Positions 2,158 to 36,039 of a stretch of DNA of 64,000 bases are shown here, piece after piece. Within the stretch, counting starts at the first letter, position 1, and the number at the start of each line of letters is the position of its first letter. Below the pieces are notes generated by a model. It was not told the origin of the DNA and did no database searches. It worked only from the letters and a program-made list of their open reading frames with translations. Source of the DNA: Bacteroidota bacterium (lineage in GTDB: Bacteria > Bacteroidota > Ignavibacteria > Kapaibacteriales > HRBIN21); contig JAUQPL010000006.1 in the NCBI GenBank assembly GCA_030550395.1, positions 4,624 to 68,623 on the forward strand. Direction: 5' to 3'. The position numbers and the translations under genes are program-made.

Positions 2158-3468
2158 TTACGGTTCGGGTGGGAAGAGTTGACGCCCGCGGACGAAGACC
2201 CTTTGGATGGCTGCTGGCGTTGCGGTGTAGAGAAGGCGCATCAGTAAGCTTTCTGGGTCTGTCCGCAAGGGGTGCTGAGGTTCTAAGGTAGCAAGGTCCA
2301 TGACGATGAAGTCAGCGTCTTTGCCAGACTCAAAGCTGCCGATGGAACTATCTAAACCCAGGGCTTGGGCTCCTCCGAGAGTAGCAAGCCAGAGGGCTTC
2401 CTCGGGGCTGATTTCTGTCGGGGTTTCTTCGGGAGCTATAAAGCTTCGCAACTTTGCCATTTCTCGGGCGTAACGGGCCTCTTCGAGGATGAAGGGAGAA
2501 TATCCCGCGCCGATATCGCTTCCGAGTCCAATGCGGAGGCCGAGATCCAGGTAACACCGCAGAGGCATGATTCCGCTGCGGAGAAAGACGTTGGAGCGTG
2601 GGCAGTGGGCGATGGCACATCCGGCAGAGCGCAGTTGTGCTTGCTCCGAGGGGGAAAGGTAGAGGCAGTGCGCCAAGATGGTTCGTGATGTCAGCAAGCC
2701 AGCGGCATCGTAGATGGCAGTGTAGGTAGGAAAGTGGGGAAATTGTCCGGCAATCCAGCGTATCTCAGGCAGGCTCTCTGCCAAGTGCGTTTGCACTGGG
2801 AGCTCATACCGGTGGGCGATATCGGCACAAAGTCGGAGTAGCTCCAAAGAGCAGCTGCCAGCAAAGCGTGGGGAGACGGCATATAGAAGGCGCCCATAGT
2901 CATAGCCATGCCACTGGGCAAGGAGCTTTTCCAGCGCCTGGGGAGCATCTTCCGTGCGAATCCGAAGCTCCGGAGGCACGTTGGTATCCATGAGCGTTTG
3001 TCCCATGAGCACGCGTAGCCCTATCCGGGCAGCTGCGGCGAAGGCTTGCGAAGTTGCCTCAGCAAAGGGAGGCCCGAAGACCATAAGGGTAGTTGTCCCA
3101 CACCGAAGTGCAGCTTGGAAGAAAAGCTCCGCTTGCTGTTCGGCAAACTCTGGGTCTGCAAACCGTGCTTCCAAAGGGAAGATGAGGGTGTGCAACCATG
3201 GGAGGAGTTCTCCGGAATCAATGGCTATGGCTTGGTATTGGGGCAAGTGCGTGTGGACATCCACAAAGCCTGGTAGGAGGAGGCTTCGGGGACCGAAATC
3301 ACGAACTATCGCATGGGGGAAGCGCTGCTGGAGTTGTGTGGCCTCTCCCAGCGCTTGAATACGCCCTGCAGAATCTACGGTGAGAGCGCCGTCGTAGATA
3401 CAAGTGACCCGACGCTCTCTGGTAGGGTTAAGAATGTATCGAGCTCGGTACAGAACCGGATGCCCCAT
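2158..3468 (-). CDS. amidohydrolase, guanine deaminase-like
   Basis: Metal-binding GFVDVHTHLPQ (HxHxxQ) and the HLAES motif (QTHLAESLPE) are characteristic of the guanine/cytosine deaminase-chlorohydrolase subgroup. The first ATG is at 3468 (MGHPV...); the track's 3501 start is a TTG. Confidence 0.6.
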   Translation of the reverse strand: MGHPVLYRARYILNPTRERRVTCIYDGALTVDSAGRIQALGEATQLQQRFPHAIVRDFGPRSLLLPGFVDVHTHLPQYQAIAIDSGELLPWLHTLIFPLEARFADPEFAEQQAELFFQAALRCGTTTLMVFGPPFAEATSQAFAAAARIGLRVLMGQTLMDTNVPPELRIRTEDAPQALEKLLAQWHGYDYGRLLYAVSPRFAGSCSLELLRLCADIAHRYELPVQTHLAESLPEIRWIAGQFPHFPTYTAIYDAAGLLTSRTILAHCLYLSPSEQAQLRSAGCAIAHCPRSNVFLRSGIMPLRCYLDLGLRIGLGSDIGAGYSPFILEEARYAREMAKLRSFIAPEETPTEISPEEALWLATLGGAQALGLDSSIGSFESGKDADFIVMDLATLEPQHPLRTDPESLLMRLLYTATPAAIQRVFVRGRQLFPPEP

Positions 3469-3922
3469 AGGTTTGGGGTTCGTCGGCAGTGGCGCTGACA
3501 ATGACGGTTTTCAAAAGTTCAAGGCTTGCTTCGGCAGGAAGCACCGCAGAGGAGACAGGCAGTGGGGTTGTGTCCGACGAGGCAATTGACCAAGACCCCA
3601 GCTTCGGAGAAACATTGTGCCTCAGGAGCCAGCAAGGGAACGTGCTGGGAATGCTACTTTCAAGCGAGCAGCTACAGCCCAGATACAGCGGAGTTCTGTC
3701 CAGCGAGAACATCCGTTGCTGAGCTGACGACGGCTGGGGTGAGAGCGTTGCAGATTGTCGGTAAAGGAAATTTGGAATGCGATAGCCCCCATTCCCGTCA
3801 ATGTTGTAGCTCAATCCTGCAGCGGTTAGTTGCCGGGCAACGCGTAGGTCTGTAGAACCCAGAACCTGTGCCCATGCAGTAGAGGAGAGGAGCCCGAGAA
3901 CAAAGCAACACGGGAGAAGCAT
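3428..3922 (-). CDS. hypothetical small secreted protein (signal peptide, then S/P-rich tail)
   Basis: The first ATG gives MLLPCCFVLGLLSSTAWAQ (signal-peptide-like) and begins 53 nt downstream of the Cyc2-like gene on the same strand. The C-terminal half is low complexity and overlaps the guaD-like start by about 40 nt, so it is weakly supported. Confidence 0.25.
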   Translation of the reverse strand: MLLPCCFVLGLLSSTAWAQVLGSTDLRVARQLTAAGLSYNIDGNGGYRIPNFLYRQSATLSPQPSSAQQRMFSLDRTPLYLGCSCSLESSIPSTFPCWLLRHNVSPKLGSWSIASSDTTPLPVSSAVLPAEASLELLKTVIVSATADEPQTYGASGSVPSSIHS

Positions 3923-3974
3923 GGCAATCTCTATCAAGACCCAACAGAAAGCGCCGTGCTTGGCCTTGTTTTGC

Positions 3975-5069
3975 TCAGTAAGCGAAGTCTACCCCCACAG
4001 TCAGCCGCGTGAGAGGATTGTGGAATTGGCGTTCTATTTCTGCCAACAGACGCACGTTCCGGTAAGGGTAGTAGCTGTATTGTAGTGCTGCTGACCGATG
4101 GCGGAGGGATTGGTAAATGGAACCGTCGGGAGCATGGATTAGGTTAGCAAGGAAGGCGATGGCGTGCGGGAAGTCTATGTACTCTATCCCCAGGAAGCCT
4201 CCGTACAGGGTATGGCTTCGGGAATTGTCGTATCCGTAGAGGGCTTGGAAGAAGAGCTCTGTGTTATCCCAGAAGTTCCACCGCCAGTCTAACCCGATCC
4301 GGTAGCCGCGGATAATCCTGCCGGCCGTGTCAGGCACTTCTCCATAGAGACCAAACACCCCCAATTGGAGGGGAAGGGCAATGTGGCCGAAGAGGACCTT
4401 ACGGTTGTCGGCGTCGGCGTCTTCACCGATGTACTCTCCTATGCCATTTCCGTTGACAATGCCCAAAGCAAGGTCCCATGGAAGGCTGAGGATGAGTCCC
4501 CTCTGATACGTGAGGGGGAAGCGTCCGACTTTATAGATGAGGTAGTCGCTCCGGGTCAGTCGGAGCTCACGGGGGAACATGAGGTCGCAGAGTTGGAATT
4601 GCCCAATCTGCAGTCCCCAACCTGCCCACGGGTGGAGGTGGACCCAGGCATCTTCGAAAAAGGGAGCCTCACCCTTTTCAAAGATGACGTAGGCGTAGAA
4701 AGAAACCTGAGGTCCCAGGGCTCCCCCGGTCAGCAATTTGACTGCCCAAGGGGCTTTGAAATCTTGACGCCATTGGCGATTCTGGGTTCGGAGCTCCAAC
4801 CATTGCTGGAACCGAGCAGCCAGAGGTACTCGGTCAAAGAGATTCAGTTGGTCGTCACCTGTATTGGGTACGTACGCCTTTTCTTGCATGCCCTCAAAGA
4901 TGTAGCCGCCGGCGGAGAATTGTTGCCCGAAGGCGTTGAGTTTTGGGAAGGCAACGTGGCAAGTTGCACAAGATAATCCGTACTGGCGGGCAAAGGCGGG
5001 GATAGCATCAGCAGAGGGAGGCAGGAGAAGGCAAAGGCATACACTGAGCAGGGAAAGAGCCAAAGTCAT
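3975..5069 (-). CDS. Cyc2-like fused monoheme cytochrome c / outer-membrane beta-barrel (candidate Fe(II) oxidase or extracellular electron-transfer porin)
   Basis: Signal peptide MTLALSLLSVCLCLLLPPSADA, then AFARQYGLSCATCHVAFPKLNAFGQQF with a single CXXCH at the mature N-terminus. The rest is amphipathic and Gly/aromatic-rich and ends ...LTVGVDFAY (aromatic C-terminus typical of OM beta-barrels). A strong SD (GGAGGAG, 5-nt spacer) precedes the ATG at 5069. Confidence 0.55.
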   Translation of the reverse strand: MTLALSLLSVCLCLLLPPSADAIPAFARQYGLSCATCHVAFPKLNAFGQQFSAGGYIFEGMQEKAYVPNTGDDQLNLFDRVPLAARFQQWLELRTQNRQWRQDFKAPWAVKLLTGGALGPQVSFYAYVIFEKGEAPFFEDAWVHLHPWAGWGLQIGQFQLCDLMFPRELRLTRSDYLIYKVGRFPLTYQRGLILSLPWDLALGIVNGNGIGEYIGEDADADNRKVLFGHIALPLQLGVFGLYGEVPDTAGRIIRGYRIGLDWRWNFWDNTELFFQALYGYDNSRSHTLYGGFLGIEYIDFPHAIAFLANLIHAPDGSIYQSLRHRSAALQYSYYPYRNVRLLAEIERQFHNPLTRLTVGVDFAY

Positions 5070-5095
5070 GGTGTCTCCTCCAGCTCGATGGGACT

Positions 5096-6586
5096 TTATT
5101 GGATAACGGAAACCTCAACCCTTCGGTTCTGGGCGCGTGCTTCCTCAGAGGTACCCGGCACTAATGGGCGCCGGCGTCCCCATCCCTTTGTCTCAATGCG
5201 TCGGGATTCAATCCCATTACGCACCAAGTACTCTTTGACTGCATCGGCACGGCGTTGGGAGAGCCGGTCGTTGTAAGCGTCGGTGCCGACGTCATCGGTA
5301 TGCCCCTCAATGAGGATGCGTACGGAGGGATATGCTTTGAGGAAGTCTACCAACCGTTCCAGGTCGGGTATAGACTCTTCTTTCAGCTCAGCTTTGTCAA
5401 AGTCAAAGAAGACCAGGAGGCGAGTCCGACCGTGCTCTGCAGGAGTGAGGCGGATATCCTTCGTGATAGGGTTCTCCGTTATATTGCGCCCGACCTCAAA
5501 GCGTTCGCTGTAGAAGAGATAGCCCTCACGGGAGGCGGTCACAGAGTACGTCCGTCCAGCGGGGAGAGCAACGTAGTACTCACCTGTTTCTTCGTCGCTA
5601 TAAAGTTCGGCGATTTTCCGGCGCGTCCGGAGGTCAGTAATTGTAATGACAGCTCCCAGGGGACGCTCTGTATCGGCATCGCGGACAGTGCCTTGGACCA
5701 TTAGAACCGGTTCCGGAGGATTGGGGTTAGGAACGACGAGAAAGACGTCGAGGTCACCATCTGCTGTGGTGCGGCTCAAAAGAGCAGCGTTGCGGTCCGG
5801 TAGGGGAACGTAGAAGTATTCATCGGCGGCTGTGTTAATAGGAGAGGCTAACTTTTGGGGGCGCTCGAACCGGCCGTCAGCCCCCATACGACTGACGAAG
5901 ATGTCGAAGTTTCCATCCCGATTGGAAGCAAAATAGAGTGTCTTGCCATCGGCGGCCAGGACAGGCGCCATATCGTCGGCGTCAGAGTTGAGGGTTCGGA
6001 GCTCTATTGGAGTAGACCAACGATTTCCTTCACGACGGCACATCCATAAGTCTGTGCCTCCTGAGCCTCCGGGGCGGTCGGAAGCGAAGACGAGAAGTGT
6101 CCCATCGGCAGCAATACAGGGCTGGGAGTCCCAATAGGAGGAATTGACGGCTGGGCCAAGATTTTCTACTCGGGACCAGCGGTCGCCGGAGCGCCGCGCA
6201 AGGTATAGGTCGGTGCGTCCACTACCTCCGAGCTCATGCTGGAAGGCTGCAAAGAGCATCAAGTTCCCGTCCACAGTAAGGCTTGCGCTGCCTACGTGGG
6301 TGGCGTCCGCAATGGTGCCAGAGATACGCTCTGGAGCATGCCAGCGGTCACCATGACGTTCCACGCGGTAGAGGCGCTGGCGCCCTCCTGCACGACTGGA
6401 GGTGAGGAATACCTCCCGCCCGCCGCGGCTGACGCTGGTGACGAAGTCATCACCGGAAGAATTCAGCTCGGGCAAAGGGGTAACCTGAATTGCTGTTCCG
6501 GTCGGACGCACTTGAGTTTGGGCCCAGGTCGGGGAAGCTATAGTGGCTGCAAGCAGAGCGAGGACAGGGGCAACAGCGGTGTACAT
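5096..6586 (-). CDS. OmpA-family outer-membrane protein with PD40/TolB-like beta-propeller repeats and a CarboxypepD_reg-like domain
   Basis: Repeated ...FASDRPGGSGGTDLW.../...YFASNRDGNFDIFVS... (PD40 repeats) and a C-terminal OmpA_C domain ...ILIEGHTDDVGTDAYNDRLSQRRADAVKEYL...RRVEVSVIQ. The start is refined to the ATG at 6586 (MYTAVAPVLALLAATIASPTWAQ signal peptide), which has a GGAGG SD upstream. Confidence 0.8.
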   Translation of the reverse strand: MYTAVAPVLALLAATIASPTWAQTQVRPTGTAIQVTPLPELNSSGDDFVTSVSRGGREVFLTSSRAGGRQRLYRVERHGDRWHAPERISGTIADATHVGSASLTVDGNLMLFAAFQHELGGSGRTDLYLARRSGDRWSRVENLGPAVNSSYWDSQPCIAADGTLLVFASDRPGGSGGTDLWMCRREGNRWSTPIELRTLNSDADDMAPVLAADGKTLYFASNRDGNFDIFVSRMGADGRFERPQKLASPINTAADEYFYVPLPDRNAALLSRTTADGDLDVFLVVPNPNPPEPVLMVQGTVRDADTERPLGAVITITDLRTRRKIAELYSDEETGEYYVALPAGRTYSVTASREGYLFYSERFEVGRNITENPITKDIRLTPAEHGRTRLLVFFDFDKAELKEESIPDLERLVDFLKAYPSVRILIEGHTDDVGTDAYNDRLSQRRADAVKEYLVRNGIESRRIETKGWGRRRPLVPGTSEEARAQNRRVEVSVIQ

Positions 6587-6599
6587 GGCTGCCTCCGAA

Positions 6600-7463
6600 C
6601 TACAAATCAAACCAGAGTCCCAAGAGGAGCTGTATGGAATGCTGTGATGCATTGCGTAGCCGAACGTTGTACAGCCCTTCAGAGAACCATTTCCACCCGT
6701 CGCTGCTTTCCATGTCTTCGCGGAAAGAGGAGAGGAGTTGGAGCTGGAGCCGTGGGACAAGCCATAGTTTGGGGTTTAGTGGTATTGCATAGCCAGCCCC
6801 TAATTCCGCACCGATGCGGGAGCTTTTCATAGGAGGGGAGTTGATTTCTAGTTCAACCTCCAGCTGCCGGTATAGCCGATTATCCTCTGGGTTGAGGAAT
6901 CCGCAGTTGCTGGTCTCTGGGACAGAGTACTTTGTCTTTTGCCGATTACTTCGGTGAAAGTGGGCGACAATGCCAGCGGTGAGCCAAAGCTGGGCAGAGA
7001 CGTTGTAGCGTATTCCTGCCCCAGCGGTAAGGTAGTTCGTTGTGAAGGTCCAATCTACAGAAACCGGCACTGTGGTGATGATGGTAGGGTCATAGAGATT
7101 CTGACAGTCTGCTTCAGCCGTGCCGGAGTGCCCCACAGTTTTGACGTCGTACCCTACGTGCAGTCGGAGCCCGAGGTTGGGGGTGAGACCAATGTCGGCA
7201 AGGATGCGGACGGCAGGCGAGAGCCCGTTACCGCTTTTGAACAGCTGCGGGGGGGTATTGGTCGGTGCAGGGGTGGGTTGGTACTGTAGGCTTTGTGAGG
7301 CGGTGTTCCAATTTACTCCTCCTTCAATACCGAGCATGATGGGTAGTGGGCGTTCTCTTACCGGCGCGAAGGCTGGGGCACCGCGGGGACGTAGAATGTC
7401 CTCTTGGGCAATGGCGGGGAGGGTCAACAGGAGGAGACCGAGCACCGTACTCCGGGAACGCAT
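6600..7463 (-). CDS. outer-membrane beta-barrel protein (small OMP)
   Basis: Signal peptide MRSRSTVLGLLLLTLPAIAQ, alternating hydrophobic pattern and C-terminal ...LLLGLWFDL. It lies 13 nt upstream of the PD40/OmpA gene on the same strand. Confidence 0.5.
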   Translation of the reverse strand: MRSRSTVLGLLLLTLPAIAQEDILRPRGAPAFAPVRERPLPIMLGIEGGVNWNTASQSLQYQPTPAPTNTPPQLFKSGNGLSPAVRILADIGLTPNLGLRLHVGYDVKTVGHSGTAEADCQNLYDPTIITTVPVSVDWTFTTNYLTAGAGIRYNVSAQLWLTAGIVAHFHRSNRQKTKYSVPETSNCGFLNPEDNRLYRQLEVELEINSPPMKSSRIGAELGAGYAIPLNPKLWLVPRLQLQLLSSFREDMESSDGWKWFSEGLYNVRLRNASQHSIQLLLGLWFDL

Positions 7464-7531
7464 AGTAACCTCACGAATGGCTTAACAAGCGGCTTCAAAA
7501 TTACTGCGGAAGGATCAGCCGAGGCAGTAGA

Positions 7532-9610
7532 GTGGGAAAACGGTTCCGTAATTTTGCCAAGAAGCGCAATCCATGGGCACTGGGAGTGTGGGGAATTGTG
7601 ATACTGCTTGGCTGCGTGCTGGGAAGTTCCGCTCAGCAGCGGAGCTGGCGGGTGTTTTTTCTTGACAAAGGACCGGAGCCGTTCTCTATAGGGAGTCCGC
7701 TGTACGAGCAGACGCTAAGGCTTCATACTCCCCGGGCGTTGGTGCGGAGAGCATGGGTTCGAGGAGGTGATTCGCTCCTTACGTTGGCGGATGCCCCCGT
7801 ATATGAGCCTTACATTGATAGCCTTCGGCGCCTGGGTGCCTCGGTTCGATTGCGGGTGCGTTGGAATAACTATGTCGTGGTAGAAGCAGATTCCGTAATT
7901 GTAGAGCGTTTGCGGGGGCTCCCATTTGTTGCTGCCGTACAGCCGACGCATCAGGTGCCTTTACCGCGTACCCGTGTGCGGGTTACCTCCGGGGAGAGAG
8001 GCTCCGGGGGAGAGACGCTCCCTGTAGTGTGTGGGGAGCTGGACTACGGGGCTTCGTGGAGGCAGGTGCAGATGCTGGAGGTGCCGTTCCTCCATCGGAT
8101 GGGCTTCACGGGAGATAGTGTTCTTGTGGGGCTTTTGGACACGGGGTTTCGCTGGCGGGGACATCCGGCGTTTGAGCACATAGCCGTGGTAGCGGAATGG
8201 GATTTCCTCCAAGGGGACTCGGTGACGGCGAATGAAGGGACGGAGCATCCCTTGCAGGATACTCATGGCACGATGGTGCTATCTGTCGTTGGAGCTTTCT
8301 GGCCGGGGCAGCTTATTGGGGTCGCCCCAATGGCTCGGTACATCTTGGCGAAGACGGAGGATATTAGCCGGGAACGACACGTGGAGGAAGATGCGTATGC
8401 GGCAGCCATAGAGTGGATGGAGGCACTTGGTGTGGACGTTATTTCTTCCTCCCTGGGCTACCGGGATTTTGATAGCTTGGAGGTGTCGTATACTACTGAG
8501 CAGTTGGATGGGCGCACGACTATTGTCGCCCGGGCGGTAACGATGGCGGCGCAGCGAGGGGTGATATGTGTGACGGCGATGGGGAACGATGGTCGGCGTG
8601 GTTTAGTCTCGCCGGCGGATGCCGATAGCGTAGTTGCGGTGGCTGCTGTTGACAGTACGGAGCAATGGGCGCCGTTTAGCTCGGTGGGATTTCGGCAGCG
8701 CGGTGTCCTCCGTCCCACGGTAGCGGCAATGGGGGTCTCTGTCGTGGCTGCGGGACCTCGAGGGCAATGGGTGCGAGCGTCGGGGACCTCACTGGCAACA
8801 CCGCTGGTGGCGGGGACATTAGCCTTGCTCATTGGGGCGCGCCCGGACGTTCCCCCGTGGCGGATTCGCCAGGCCCTCTTGGAGACAGCATCCCGCGCTC
8901 GGGCACCCGACACCTTGGTCGGCTACGGGGTCCCCCGAGCCGCGCAGGCATTGGCTTCGTTGGGAGGTGCTTTAGGAACGCCCGCTGTCTGGAAGCTGCC
9001 TTCAGGAGCTATACGAGTTGCCTGCTATGGGTTTATCCCCTTCCGCTCGTTCCATGCGTGGCTTCAGTGGGCAGCTCAGCCAAGGGAGGATGCTGTTGAG
9101 GGGTATCTTCTGATGCGGGTCACCGGGGATAATGGGATGCCGTTGCTGTATGGGGATCTGCCCGGGGTGCTGCTCCAGCGGGGGCAACCTGTGTGGATAC
9201 AGGTGTGGGTTGAGAGCGCGGAGGGGAAGAAGCTGTCCAGCCGGTGGTATGTCCTTCCTCAGCAACCTAGTTTCCCATGTGGAGTGGAGATTCCAGAGTC
9301 CGTACTCCATGGGGGTGAAGACCAAGGCAGGACAGTGCAGATTCTGCCTCACCCTGTGATGGCTGGGCAGGAGTGTGTTGCGCGTGTGCCGGGTATATAT
9401 CCGGGGAGCCAGCAGCCATTATCCTCGGTTTGTCTTTGGGACATGACGGGGCGTTTAGTCGAGTGCGTATCGCTTCTACCCGAGAGACTGGGCCAGGTTC
9501 CAGAGTGGACAGTACGGCTTCCAACGGCGAGACTCTCCCCAGGTCTCTATTGGGTAGAGGCTACGTACGGTAAAGCGGAGCGCTTGGGGGCTCCACTCAT
9601 TTTGTACTGA
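7532..9610 (+). CDS. S8 family subtilisin-like serine peptidase with T9SS C-terminal sorting domain
   Basis: Catalytic triad contexts GLLDTGF (Asp), HGTMVLSV (His) and GTSLATP (Ser). The C-terminal ~80 aa ...SPGLYWVEATYGKAERLGAPLILY matches the Por_Secre_tail pattern. GTG start with a basic n-region and hydrophobic signal peptide. Confidence 0.85.
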   Translation: MGKRFRNFAKKRNPWALGVWGIVILLGCVLGSSAQQRSWRVFFLDKGPEPFSIGSPLYEQTLRLHTPRALVRRAWVRGGDSLLTLADAPVYEPYIDSLRRLGASVRLRVRWNNYVVVEADSVIVERLRGLPFVAAVQPTHQVPLPRTRVRVTSGERGSGGETLPVVCGELDYGASWRQVQMLEVPFLHRMGFTGDSVLVGLLDTGFRWRGHPAFEHIAVVAEWDFLQGDSVTANEGTEHPLQDTHGTMVLSVVGAFWPGQLIGVAPMARYILAKTEDISRERHVEEDAYAAAIEWMEALGVDVISSSLGYRDFDSLEVSYTTEQLDGRTTIVARAVTMAAQRGVICVTAMGNDGRRGLVSPADADSVVAVAAVDSTEQWAPFSSVGFRQRGVLRPTVAAMGVSVVAAGPRGQWVRASGTSLATPLVAGTLALLIGARPDVPPWRIRQALLETASRARAPDTLVGYGVPRAAQALASLGGALGTPAVWKLPSGAIRVACYGFIPFRSFHAWLQWAAQPREDAVEGYLLMRVTGDNGMPLLYGDLPGVLLQRGQPVWIQVWVESAEGKKLSSRWYVLPQQPSFPCGVEIPESVLHGGEDQGRTVQILPHPVMAGQECVARVPGIYPGSQQPLSSVCLWDMTGRLVECVSLLPERLGQVPEWTVRLPTARLSPGLYWVEATYGKAERLGAPLILY

Positions 9611-33257: not shown

Positions 33258-34685
33258 CTATGGGACGATAGAGGAAGGAATTGCAAAGTTATTGGCGATT
33301 CCCAATTGGGCTGTTGCAGCTGAGAAGAGCTGTTGTAGTTTGAGATATTCCTTACGATACTGCTCCACTTGCTGTTCAATCCGCAGCTCCGTTTGACGGA
33401 TGCGCTGTGAGAGGGTTTGTAGCTGTCGTCCGATACTATTCCAGCGGGCATGTAGGGTACCCGAGGAACCGATCATATCTTGTAGCAGAGTTGTGATCCG
33501 CTCGCCAAATCCCCCGCTGGAAGTAAAGAGAGCAGCGACACGGTCGCTTCCATTGGCAAGCTCTTGCTCTAAGCGTCGGCGATCAGAGAGGGTGAGGGTT
33601 CCATCTTTACCAATGCCGATCCCAATGTCGCCCAGCGTCTGTAAAGCTCCGTTACCGAGCAGCTGACTACTGAGAGAGCGCAGGTTGCTGAGAAGTTGTC
33701 GGAGAACTAAGTCGCCTTTGAGCGAGCCATTGAGAGCGTTTGTGAGCTCTTTAAGAGCGCTGTTGTATACGTCCAGGAGCTTCTGAATGAGCGCCGCTAC
33801 GGCGTCGGGGTCCACGGTCGTTGTTAGCGTCACCGCTGACTCAGTAGGAGTCTGGCTGCGAAGCAGTGTGAGTGTGACTCCGGGCAGGAGATCTGAGATT
33901 GTGTTGGATTGGCGGGTGACTGTAATTGCGTTAATGCTCAGTTGGGCGTTCAACTCAGAGGAGCGAGCACGTTGATATCCAGCACTTGTCTCCGTAAAGA
34001 CGGTCCGGTTTTCCGGATCAGCAAAGAAGCCGCTGTTCCAGCCTAAGCGGGCTAAGAGACCATCTGTGTCGACGAAGCGCAAGGCGGAATCGCTTCCGGT
34101 CTGCTTTGCAGTCAGAGAAAGGCGAACGGTGGTGGGAGTGTCTGTGAGCACAGTAGCGACGGCACCGACGTTAGTGGTCGCGTTGATAGCAGTAGCAATC
34201 TTCCTCAGAGCGGCTTCGGTATCCTCTGTCCCGTCTAAGGTGACGGTGACGGTCACGGTTGTGCCGCTCCCTGTCAATTCAAAGCGATACACCCCGGCGG
34301 GCAGGAAAGGATCGGTTCGGAGGAGACGCTGGGAGACCAAAACGTCATTATGGGCAAGGCGATGGACGTACACAGAAGTTGTTCCAAGGGTAGCAGAACT
34401 CTCTGCTATTGCTGTAACGACATCCGGATGAGAGCTCTGAACCTTTCGAGTTGCAAAGCGCTGGTCGGCACCAGGGAGTGTGAAGAGCTGCCCTTGGAAG
34501 AAGAGCTCCTCCAGCTTTGAGCGTATAGTGTTCAGGAGCTTCTGCTGCTCTTGAAGCTGCTGCCGCCTCTGTTTGAGAGTCTCCAGCGGACGACTCTGCT
34601 GGGAGCGGTAAGCCGCCAATAGCTGCTTCAGCAGAGCTTGTCCCGTTGGGTTCTGGAGCAGTGAGATGTCTGTAATACCTGCCAT
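33258..34685 (-). CDS. fliD: flagellar filament cap protein FliD
   Basis: The N-terminal heptad region MAGITDISLL...LLKQLLAAYRSQQSRPLETLKQRRQQLQEQQKLLNTIRSKLEEL is typical of FliD; about 475 aa. The first ATG is at 34685. Confidence 0.7.
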   Translation of the reverse strand: MAGITDISLLQNPTGQALLKQLLAAYRSQQSRPLETLKQRRQQLQEQQKLLNTIRSKLEELFFQGQLFTLPGADQRFATRKVQSSHPDVVTAIAESSATLGTTSVYVHRLAHNDVLVSQRLLRTDPFLPAGVYRFELTGSGTTVTVTVTLDGTEDTEAALRKIATAINATTNVGAVATVLTDTPTTVRLSLTAKQTGSDSALRFVDTDGLLARLGWNSGFFADPENRTVFTETSAGYQRARSSELNAQLSINAITVTRQSNTISDLLPGVTLTLLRSQTPTESAVTLTTTVDPDAVAALIQKLLDVYNSALKELTNALNGSLKGDLVLRQLLSNLRSLSSQLLGNGALQTLGDIGIGIGKDGTLTLSDRRRLEQELANGSDRVAALFTSSGGFGERITTLLQDMIGSSGTLHARWNSIGRQLQTLSQRIRQTELRIEQQVEQYRKEYLKLQQLFSAATAQLGIANNFAIPSSIVP

Positions 34686-34701
34686 GGGGGCCCCTTGGCA
34701 A

Positions 34702-35067
34702 CTAGTCAAACCCGAACGCCTCAGCCCATGCCTCTCGCAACCCTTGGATAATGGTTATAGCCTCTTCGTAGCGACGTTCCCACACACACCGTTGGCAGTA
34801 TTCATAAAGCCGATAGAGCCGAACAGCGATCTCTCCTGCTTCAAAGTTTAGGGCTTCCATTAGTTGAACCAGTGCGCGATTCATCCTGACGATATCACGC
34901 TGCTTAGCGGCTGACAAGAACACGTCGTAGGTTTTTAAGATGAGCTGTTCGGGACTCCAGCTAAAGACTTCCTGCTCCAGATAGGGGGTTATCGCCTTCG
35001 TTGGAGCTTCCATGGGTTTGAGAGTGATTGTGATACTTGTGGAGGGGAGGGGATGGGGGGAACCCAT
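34702..35067 (-). CDS. fliS: flagellar export chaperone FliS
   Basis: ...AYLEQEVFSWSPEQLILKTYDVFLSAAKQ... fits the FliS helical-bundle family and lies between fliC and fliD. Alternative start at 35013 (MEAPTKAIT...). Confidence 0.65.
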   Translation of the reverse strand: MGSPHPLPSTSITITLKPMEAPTKAITPYLEQEVFSWSPEQLILKTYDVFLSAAKQRDIVRMNRALVQLMEALNFEAGEIAVRLYRLYEYCQRCVWERRYEEAITIIQGLREAWAEAFGFD

Positions 35068-35103
35068 CCCCTTTACCCTTCACCACGCCCGCTGCGCGGC
35101 TGG

Positions 35104-36039
35104 TTACCGGAAAAGCTGGAGGAAGACCTGTGGCTGTTGGTTCGCCTGTGCTAAGGAGATGAGAGAAGTTTGCTGCAAGAACTGGGCCCGGATCAGTTCG
35201 AGCTGTTCTTTGGCTACGTCGGCATCCTCTATCCGTGAGATAGCAGCATTGTAGTTCGTGATCTGTGTTTTAAGCAGGTCTTCCTGAGAGCTCAGGCGGT
35301 TAATGATCCCACCCACATAGGAGGCAACCTTGTTAACGTTTTGTAGTGCTTGGTCTAAGCTCTGGAGCGTTGTGGTAATCTGGCTGGCACTGAAGATGCG
35401 GAGATCGCTGGAGCTCACTAATGCCAGTTCTTCCAAGTCCAGATTGGTGACGCCGGCGAAGTTTGTGTTCCCGTTAACAGCAAGCCAGAAAGAGCTAGAG
35501 TCCACATTGAAGTCACTTACGTTGGTGCTTTCTAAGTTAATGCTCAACGTAATGAGAGTGTTGTCAGCCCTGTAACCGATGACGAAATCAGCAGAGAAGC
35601 TGCCATCAATAAGCTGTCGACCGCCGAAGGTCGTGGAGTCGACCACGCTCTGAATCTGTTGTGCTAGACGGTATGCGGCGCGTGCCAGGGAGACCTTCTC
35701 ATCCGTCCCCAAAGCGCCGGAAGAGGCTTGGGAAGCAGCTTCTTTAATTTGGGCGACAAGGCTCTGGATGTTGTCCAGTGCGTCCTGAACAATGGCAGCT
35801 AAGCTACTTGCGTCGCCGACAGCATTGAGCGCTGTGCTGATACCCATAACGCGAGCACTCAAGGCACGGACCGTAATATAGCCTGCTACGTCATCGGCGG
35901 CGGAGTTGATACGCTTCCCTGTAGAAAGGCGTAGCTGGCGGAGTGCAATAGCACGGTTTGCTGCATCCAGAGCATTGTATGCGTTCTCCGCCGGTGTGTT
36001 CGTACGGATCCGTGCACCGTTCGTGATGGCGTATGGCAT
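35104..36039 (-). CDS. fliC: flagellin
   Basis: N-terminal ...LRQLRLSTGKRINSAADDVAGYITVRAL... (flagellin D0/D1 signature RINSAADDAAG) and C-terminal ...LISLAQANQQPQVFLQLFR. SD GAGGGT; a sigma-28 promoter lies immediately upstream. Confidence 0.85.
   Translation of the reverse strand: MPYAITNGARIRTNTPAENAYNALDAANRAIALRQLRLSTGKRINSAADDVAGYITVRALSARVMGISTALNAVGDASSLAAIVQDALDNIQSLVAQIKEAASQASSGALGTDEKVSLARAAYRLAQQIQSVVDSTTFGGRQLIDGSFSADFVIGYRADNTLITLSINLESTNVSDFNVDSSSFWLAVNGNTNFAGVTNLDLEELALVSSSDLRIFSASQITTTLQSLDQALQNVNKVASYVGGIINRLSSQEDLLKTQITNYNAAISRIEDADVAKEQLELIRAQFLQQTSLISLAQANQQPQVFLQLFR

Follow-up and report, generated by a model that had tools for sequence, protein, structure and literature searches.

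In the genome of a hot-spring Bacteroidota bacterium (GTDB order Kapaibacteriales, HRBIN21; assembly GCA_030550395.1, contig JAUQPL010000006.1, positions 4,624 to 68,623), a gene for a Cyc2-like fused cytochrome-porin is situated directly downstream of the genes for a small outer-membrane β-barrel and for a protein with PD40, CarboxypepD_reg and OmpA domains (hereafter PD40/OmpA). This arrangement, located within the 64,000 nucleotides (nt) that we analysed and refer to as the window, raises the question of whether the two envelope proteins tether or assemble the cytochrome-porin or whether the three genes are neighbours without a common task. Our comparative analysis makes it likely that genes of independent function have come to stand side by side in this one lineage, within a single compact transcription unit. 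The coordinates of all features are compiled in Table 1.

Gene order within the lineage

The lineage of the window is represented by seven HR21-like genomes, the window itself, L007, and L087, L089, L093, L094 and L180, the last five of which were obtained by exact-protein look-ups. Their Cyc2 proteins are 77% (L007, a metagenome-assembled genome (MAG) labelled 'Chlorobiota bacterium') or 69-75% (the other five) identical to that of the window. Relatives had originally been expected in the Rhodothermota/Bacteroidota; the lineage belongs to the Kapabacteria and not to the Rhodothermota, its members being labelled 'Chlorobiota bacterium', 'bacterium HR21' or 'Candidatus Kapabacteria' at NCBI. 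In all seven genomes a region of about 18 kb is collinear, some 16 flanking housekeeping genes included. Its genes are, in this order, HutI-like, NTP-transferase, SDR, S8 peptidase, barrel, PD40/OmpA, Cyc2, GuaD, GNAT-like, GWxTD, RuvX, histidine kinase-like and IspF. The gaps between barrel and PD40/OmpA and between PD40/OmpA and Cyc2 measure 7-21 nt and 8-37 nt, respectively, in all seven. Thus, the synteny that had been anticipated for a functional module does exist among close relatives (Cyc2 identity 69-77%), but trivially so, since the flanking genes are collinear as well, and none was found beyond the lineage. With conservation extending in this way over about 18 kb, the order of the four genes in HR21-like genomes is uninformative with regard to a module; in the genomes compared, Cyc2 adjoins the barrel and PD40/OmpA genes in this lineage alone, and this adjacency is conserved no better than its surroundings.

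One member of the lineage, the Candidatus Kapabacteria MAG L093 (GCA_033581675.1), carries a Cyc2 gene (L093:12370-13500) whose reading frame is interrupted by a stop codon and two frameshifts but which is still 66-81% identical to the window protein, and its barrel, PD40/OmpA and GuaD genes are intact. If these frameshifts are real, the gene would be a pseudogene, and Cyc2 would be able to decay without affecting the other two envelope genes.

The pair outside the lineage and the neighbours of Cyc2

As an outgroup we used nine loci with full-length PD40/OmpA orthologues (L096-L104; 46-52% identity, 485-505 amino acids (aa)) from MAGs which are labelled Kapabacteria or Kapaibacterium or are unlabelled. 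A gene of the barrel family (OMP287-family) is located 8-24 nt upstream of the PD40/OmpA gene in each of these loci, as identified by a hidden Markov model (HMM; E-values of 1e-83 to 1e-96), and no Cyc2-family open reading frame (ORF) occurs within 6-8 kb in any of them. The genes downstream of the outgroup pairs vary and include RecO, TruA and a large type IX secretion system (T9SS) cargo protein. Since the barrel gene precedes PD40/OmpA in nine out of nine loci devoid of Cyc2, the pair is to be regarded as an old unit that is separate from Cyc2; the distribution of its sequences indicates a conserved, apparently undescribed two-gene unit of the Kapabacteria/Ignavibacteria/'Chlorobi' group. 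Remoter homologues of PD40/OmpA (L105-L179; at most 38% identity, 640-710 aa) belong to the long, TPR-bearing kind that resembles PorE/CHU_0125, and a barrel gene of this family does not precede them. That the barrel is restricted to the window's lineage was considered and rejected: a word-indexed search returned ten relatives, all from this lineage, and the HMM then matched all outgroup pairs. Paralogues occur within the outgroup: in L096 a further PD40/OmpA-like gene (L096:4666-6198) lies 1.8 kb upstream of the pair, with a gene for a 447-aa protein with faint multihaem-cytochrome matches (L096:12712-14055) 3 kb downstream, and in L104 two barrel-family ORFs stand in tandem, the additional one at L104:3817-5076.

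Similarly, the neighbourhoods of Cyc2 were surveyed with one genome per GTDB species; from 587 confirmed Cyc2-family loci the best 80 were retained, and 81 loci entered the neighbour counts. The barrel and PD40/OmpA genes stand beside Cyc2 in a single one of these, L007 from the window's own lineage, and the remaining 80 loci are without the pair. The nearest Cyc2 proteins outside the lineage (48-50% identity), encoded in L008 (a WOR-3 MAG), L009 (a 'Thermotogota' MAG) and L091, have unrelated neighbours, the L091 gene being located after M1, M28 and M36 peptidase genes and before NifU. When all ORFs at most 4 kb from the 81 Cyc2 genes were clustered, a multihaem cytochrome c gene was found upstream of Cyc2 on the same strand in 33 loci, with a median gap of 19 nt. 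Its product comprises about 450 aa with 4-5 CXXCH motifs and matches the Pfam families Cytochrome_C7 and C554, and the respective loci span Ignavibacteria, Melioribacter, Bacteroidales, Calditrichota, Gemmatimonadota and Holophagae (L013-L086). The recurrence of this arrangement provides a positive control, showing that the approach can detect conserved Cyc2 partners. The Cyc2 proteins of these loci are of the same family as that of the window (31-37% identity), whereas the window's lineage lacks the multihaem gene. Judged by gene neighbourhood, the multihaem cytochrome is a much stronger candidate for a Cyc2 partner than any gene in the window, and its recurrent pairing with Cyc2 in other phyla would be the better starting point for a real Cyc2 partner set.

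According to the original prediction, the barrel and PD40/OmpA proteins could tether or assemble the Cyc2 conduit. In such an envelope module, the two proteins would anchor, assemble or stabilise Cyc2 in the HR21-like lineage, and the genes would be co-transcribed for joint work. The order and short gaps kept in seven of seven lineage genomes are consistent with this idea, as are the single promoter-like box and the lack of a terminator between the genes described below; there is also a precedent in PorE and PorP, where a propeller/OmpA_C protein anchors an outer-membrane barrel to the cell wall (PMC9143113). However, the pair is older and far more widespread than its association with Cyc2, being without it in all nine outgroup loci and next to it in only one of the 81 Cyc2 loci, and within the lineage the housekeeping genes on either side are conserved at least as well. 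In addition, a guanine-deaminase-like gene resides in the same string, and L093 combines a disrupted Cyc2 gene with an intact pair. With nine out of nine pairs lacking Cyc2 and 80 out of 81 Cyc2 loci lacking the pair, the proposed tethering or assembly finds no support, and we regard a module of this kind as improbable. We are equally sceptical of its most far-reaching form, in which the pair of barrel and propeller/OmpA_C protein, an ancient tether, was recruited in thermophilic HR21-like Kapabacteria as a dedicated scaffold pinning a miniaturised Cyc2 of 364 aa to the cell wall; if true, this would represent a previously unknown Cyc2 accessory set and the first module for iron or electron uptake in this class.

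Some points weigh against a mere juxtaposition. The frameshifts in L093 could be assembly errors. Although the proteins have diverged by 20-30%, all lineage genomes examined retain the tight order barrel, PD40/OmpA, Cyc2, so that a functional recruitment specific to this lineage may have taken place. Moreover, the pair is represented by a small sample of nine outgroup loci. Paralogues of the pair exist (L096) and the survey counted loci, so that the copy linked to Cyc2 could be a dedicated paralogue.

A short-form member of the Cyc2 family

Cyc2 proteins are defined by a signal peptide, one CXXCH motif, the family-unique motif AXPXFAR[Q/K][T/Y] upstream and a PXL motif downstream of it, and a 16-stranded porin (Keffer et al. 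2021, PMC8406198). The Cyc2-like ORF of the window has no match in Pfam or NCBIfam, and when the Cyc2 alignment was run as a profile against the PDB, no solved relative emerged. Its features were read from the sequence and from an AlphaFold 2 (AF2) model. The N-terminus has the appearance of a Sec signal peptide (MTLALSLLSVCLCLLLPPSADA followed by IPAF), and in the model a helix at residues 2-13 is followed by a low-confidence segment. The only CXXCH is CATCH at residues 34-38; AIPAFARQY at residues 22-30 fits the family motif and is as far from CXXCH as its counterpart in P0081, a homologue from Mariprofundaceae, and the PXL motif is found 4 residues past CXXCH (H38-VAF-PKL). Across an alignment of 30 homologues, no variation is seen at P24, F26, R28, Y30, C34, C37, H38, P42 and L44. 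The model, which was built on this alignment (pLDDT 86.9, pTM 0.84), contains 17 strand elements according to DSSP, two adjacent ones probably forming one kinked strand, and its best Foldseek matches are the 16-stranded porins OmpU, OmpF, OmpC and Omp32 (probability 1.0, E-values of 6e-12 to 1e-9). Its homologues include proteins with 34-38% identity that are encoded in MAGs of Mariprofundaceae and Gallionellaceae, both of them Cluster 1 taxa. Signal peptide, CXXCH, both flanking motifs and porin fold are thus common to the window protein and to established members such as Cyc2PV-1 of Mariprofundus ferrooxydans and Cyc2 of Acidithiobacillus ferrooxidans, and with all sequence and fold features of the family predicted, the protein is best described as a new, short-form Cyc2 of thermophilic Kapabacteria. 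In contrast to Mariprofundus and Acidithiobacillus, its host lineage is not known to oxidise iron.

The shortness of the protein deserves attention. Whereas Cyc2 family members mostly have at least 400 aa, the window protein has shorter loops, as seen from alignment gaps, and with 364 aa falls one residue short of the 365-aa filter that Keffer et al. and FeGenie apply. Among the 26 closest clusters at 90% identity, at least 15 are 347-364 aa long, and the short clade as a whole (the window protein and homologues P0001-P0026; 347-368 aa) straddles the 365-aa minimum, which is a screening rule and not a biological criterion. This clade, which occurs in thermophilic Kapabacteria and in MAGs labelled WOR-3 or Thermotogota, carries the full signature, and much of it is dropped by 365-aa filters; hence, surveys of the potential for iron oxidation in hot springs may undercount it.

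That this is not a usual neighbourhood for cyc2 had been pointed out before, and rightly so. The Cyc2-like ORF is the only one with a CXXCH motif among the ORFs of at least 90 aa in the window, and no cyc1, cox, rus or other cytochrome gene is present in these 64 kb. Unlike the rus-type operon (cyc2-cyc1-cup-coxBACD-rus), the locus has no adjacent gene for a cytochrome, a cupredoxin or a terminal oxidase; the neighbours are PD40/OmpA, the small YbjN-like ORF and GuaD. Literature searches on Cyc2 in Kapabacteria and in Ignavibacteria of hot springs did not turn up an account of this locus. A foreign origin of the gene was rejected, as there is no anomaly in GC content (0.55-0.56 around Cyc2 and 0.54-0.60 in the flanks).

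By analogy with the family, the window protein might function in iron oxidation or electron transfer. It would be exported via Sec, loaded with haem in the periplasm and inserted by the β-barrel assembly machinery (BAM) as a 16-stranded barrel with an N-terminal haem domain, and might then pass single electrons between soluble extracellular Fe2+, or other small redox species, and a periplasmic carrier, none of which is encoded in the window. With regard to the history of the locus, the short-form gene probably took its place directly downstream of the pair solely in the forebear of the thermophilic HR21-like lineage and was passed on thereafter together with the other genes of the collinear region of about 18 kb. 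Since the comparative evidence separates the parts, the locus matters little as a new electron-conduit module.

The barrel and PD40/OmpA proteins as a candidate tether

The barrel of the window yields only weak matches to OMP_b-brl in Pfam. Its homologues match PF13568 and PF13505; across the family, OMP_b-brl is matched by ten of ten members and OMP_b-brl_2 by seven, and PorP_SprF (PF11751) is matched by none of the ten at E-values up to 1. The AF2 model (pLDDT 76.7) resembles the OmpA transmembrane domain, OmpT, OpcA and Ail in Foldseek comparisons.

The PD40/OmpA protein, for which more than 1100 strong homologues were found, matches OmpA (5.5e-26) and PD40 (5.1e-22) in Pfam, and CarboxypepD_reg with 29.3 bits (1.1e-06), below the cutoff of 32.3; no TPR domain is matched in Pfam. 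Its signal peptide is of the signal peptidase I type, and the N-terminus, MYTAVAPVLALLAATIASPTWA followed by QTQ, is free of cysteines and thus offers no lipobox. The peptidoglycan-binding motif NDRLSQRRADAV (N-x2-LS-x2-RA-x2-V) is invariant in the PD40/OmpA alignment A2, and the OmpA_C domain finds the C-terminal domain of OprF (5u1h, 3e-30), Pal and PorE's C-terminal domain (6top, 9e-16) in the PDB. The same domain also matches residues 756-863 of PDB entry 7f4v_aB (E-value of 5.8e-20), an 872-aa chain annotated as 'Photosystem I P700 chlorophyll a apoprotein A2', where an OmpA-like region is unexpected and may reflect a fusion or a labelling issue.

Among NCBIfam families, the best match of the 496-aa protein is PorE (NF052230; 5.9e-61, profile positions 208-599 of 648), followed closely by the CHU_0125 family (NF053607; 8.6e-60, positions 139-637 of 639); the scores of 206.6 and 202.9 bits compare with cutoffs of 600 and 620, respectively. 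In the closest precedent from experiments, PorE connects the PorP barrel with peptidoglycan, and in Flavobacterium johnsoniae six genes of the porP-like kind adjoin porE-like genes (PMC9143113). Like PorE, the window protein combines a propeller, a CarboxypepD_reg-like domain and OmpA_C with intact peptidoglycan-binding residues, and like the PorE-PorP system the locus pairs the gene for such a periplasmic protein with a barrel gene, so that by analogy the pair may also bridge outer membrane and peptidoglycan. In contrast to that system, the window protein has neither a TPR domain nor a lipoprotein signal, and the barrel is of the OMP_b-brl/OMP_b-brl_2 type. The assignment of the two proteins as members of PorP and PorE was therefore rejected, given the PorE score under the cutoff, the missing TPR domain and lipobox and the lack of a PorP_SprF match in the barrel, and the likeness is taken as one in the mode of working rather than as a family assignment. 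CHU_0125, an outer-membrane integrity protein of Cytophaga hutchinsonii, is Pal-like and affects the degradation of crystalline cellulose (PMC5891637). The PD40/CRD/OmpA_C architecture is shared with it over most of the length; however, the window protein lacks about 140 N-terminal residues of the profile and belongs to a separate subfamily of 485-505 aa that is always preceded by the barrel gene.

A more specific reading of these similarities is that the pair is a PorP-like/PorE-like accessory of the T9SS for the divergently encoded S8 peptidase or for other cargo, with Cyc2 as a bystander. The PorE match and the adjoining porP-like and porE-like genes of F. johnsoniae (PMC9143113) would fit, the S8 peptidase gene is a conserved divergent neighbour in the lineage, and genes for cargo with Por_Secre_tail lie near outgroup pairs (L096, L099). 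Nevertheless, the shortfall from the PorE cutoff, the absence of TPR domain and lipobox and the zero out of ten PorP_SprF matches speak against it; moreover, the S8 peptidase itself has no Por_Secre_tail match at an E-value below 0.1, and its adjacency to the pair is absent from the outgroup loci. A role in the T9SS thus appears very improbable, even more so than a module with Cyc2. By analogy with PorP-PorE, OmpA and TolB-Pal, the two proteins of the pair most likely tether the outer membrane to peptidoglycan jointly, as two pieces: the barrel would reside in the outer membrane, and its soluble periplasmic partner would hold peptidoglycan by OmpA_C and the barrel, or other proteins, by the propeller. 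This combination of a barrel with a TPR-less PD40/CRD/OmpA_C protein, similar to PorP-PorE in architecture, therewith presents a candidate split OmpA-like tether.

Organization and transcription of the gene string

Between positions 7463 and 2158 of the minus strand, five closely packed ORFs follow each other (Table 1). The four ORFs, coordinates and gaps of the original prediction were borne out, the gaps from barrel to PD40/OmpA, Cyc2 and small ORF being 13, 26 and 52 nt, and its calls of a β-barrel, a PD40/CarboxypepD_reg/OmpA and a Cyc2-like protein proved correct by Pfam, NCBIfam, AF2 and Foldseek. In contrast, the co-directional cluster does not end at 3428 as had been assumed but runs one gene further, into the guanine-deaminase-like gene, which overlaps the small ORF by 41 nt on the same strand. 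The PD40/OmpA length is counted from the methionine at 6586, while the longest ORF would begin at 6760; if a TTG at 3937 serves as start, the small ORF has 169 aa and the gap in front of it shrinks to 37 nt.

Table 1. Features of the cyc2 locus and of loci used for comparison. Positions refer to the window unless a locus is named.
Feature	Position	Strand	Remarks
Small outer-membrane β-barrel gene	6600-7463	minus	287 aa, signal peptide; OMP_b-brl/OMP_b-brl_2 type; first of conserved pair
PD40/CarboxypepD_reg/OmpA_C gene	5096-6586	minus	496 aa; predicted periplasmic; second of conserved pair
OmpA_C-like peptidoglycan-binding domain	5123-5410	minus	Residues 393-488 of 496-aa protein; PF00691, 5.5e-26
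Short-form Cyc2-family fused monohaem cytochrome-porin	3975-5069	minus	364 aa; predicted from homologues, motif, AF2 model, Foldseek
Cyc2 signature AIPAFARQY-GLS-CATCH-VAF-PKL	4938-5006	minus	Residues 22-44; family motif, single haem site and PXL
Small YbjN-like degenerate ORF	3428-3922	minus	164 aa; N-terminal signal-like segment
Guanine-deaminase-like amidohydrolase	2158-3468	minus	436 aa; NF006679, 381 bits (cutoff 351)
Bacteroidota-type -7 promoter box TAATTTTG (TAnnTTTG)	7496-7503	minus	33 nt upstream of barrel ATG; candidate promoter for whole string
Multihaem cytochrome genes upstream of Cyc2 (examples)	L068:8619-9962; L082:8609-9955; L046:8581-9978		

Close packing is the rule in this part of the genome. 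The median gap between genes on the same strand is 13 nt in the surrounding 21 kb; the HutI, NTP-transferase, SDR and S8 peptidase genes overlap or are at most 23 nt apart, and unrelated genes overlap or are separated by 8-23 nt. As tight spacing is locally normal even between unrelated genes, it tells little about function here.

The TAnnTTTG box upstream of the barrel gene is the sole minus-strand match to this consensus between positions 2000 and 7600, and inspection of the alignment by eye places it at the same position in the upstream regions of L007, L087, L093 and L094. Several further genes of the window have the motif 14-49 nt in front of their starts, and overall it is only mildly enriched (25 matches, 17.4 expected). 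No intrinsic terminator was found in any intergenic gap of the string; two minus-strand terminator-like sites, a number at chance level, are both located inside the Cyc2 ORF. A scan for sigma-70 promoters and terminators, which gave one weak promoter-like site inside Cyc2 and six terminator-like sites with 4.4 expected, was discarded as uninformative for an organism of the Bacteroidota type. The original prediction had considered the genes compatible with a single transcript, a view to be given up if separate promoters or terminators lay between them. Neither a TAnnTTTG box nor an intrinsic terminator occurs there, and with the one promoter-like box preceding the barrel gene a single transcript is plausible; we infer that transcription likely proceeds from this box and the barrel gene through GuaD. 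Such likely co-transcription is, however, no evidence of common function.

A further explanation is that co-expression itself was selected without physical contact of the products: Cyc2 would have been captured behind the constitutive promoter of envelope genes, its position being adaptive for regulation only. In agreement with this, PD40/OmpA and Cyc2 are separated by 26 nt without a TAnnTTTG box or terminator, and barrel, PD40/OmpA and Cyc2 are, according to their N-termini, all envelope proteins exported by Sec. On the other hand, the string also contains the cytoplasmic enzyme GuaD, non-consensus promoters would escape the scan, and sequence alone cannot separate selected co-expression from neutral juxtaposition. 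We consider selected co-expression unlikely, albeit less so than the tethering or assembly of Cyc2 by its neighbours, and favour the juxtaposition of independent genes.

The small ORF between Cyc2 and GuaD

In the original prediction the small secreted ORF counted as the fourth gene of the cluster, which now appears doubtful as it is degenerate and variable. Its sole detectable relative is a 166-aa protein encoded at the same position in L087 (26% identity over 111 residues, E-value of 4e-08). This relative passes the threshold for YbjN (PF10722; 26.3 bits, cutoff 22), whereas the window ORF matches neither PF10722 nor any other family at E-values up to 1. Although open for 164 codons, the window ORF has a flat GC content over the three codon positions (0.55/0.55/0.55), compared to 0.60-0.69/0.40-0.51/0.55-0.64 in its neighbours; that of the L087 gene is normal (0.69/0.49/0.75). 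The gene is present in two of the seven lineage genomes, and in the other five (L007, L089, L093, L094, L180) the gap between Cyc2 and GuaD is 23-77 nt. Since no other genome of the lineage has diverged as far as L087, a YbjN-like gene was probably ancestral, was repeatedly lost and is decaying in the window. These sequence features suggest that the ORF is probably a YbjN-like remnant under recently relaxed selection and no stable member of any module. The unit would thus continue after Cyc2 with a decaying or lost YbjN-like gene and be closed by the GuaD-like gene.

Additional observations

A mirror-image TAATTTTG box at 7549-7556 on the plus strand, in the direction of the divergent S8 peptidase gene, falls inside the called ORF (start at 7532). 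Therefore, the true start of the S8 peptidase is probably located downstream of 7556, and the 692-aa product as called would be too long at its N-terminus. Scans of the whole window with Rfam at gathering thresholds and for tRNAs returned nothing. On the minus strand at about 33258-36039, ORFs resembling flagellin, FliD and FliS were noted by eye from their N-terminal sequences alone, in agreement with flagellar genes reported for hot-spring Kapabacteria (PMC6338057).

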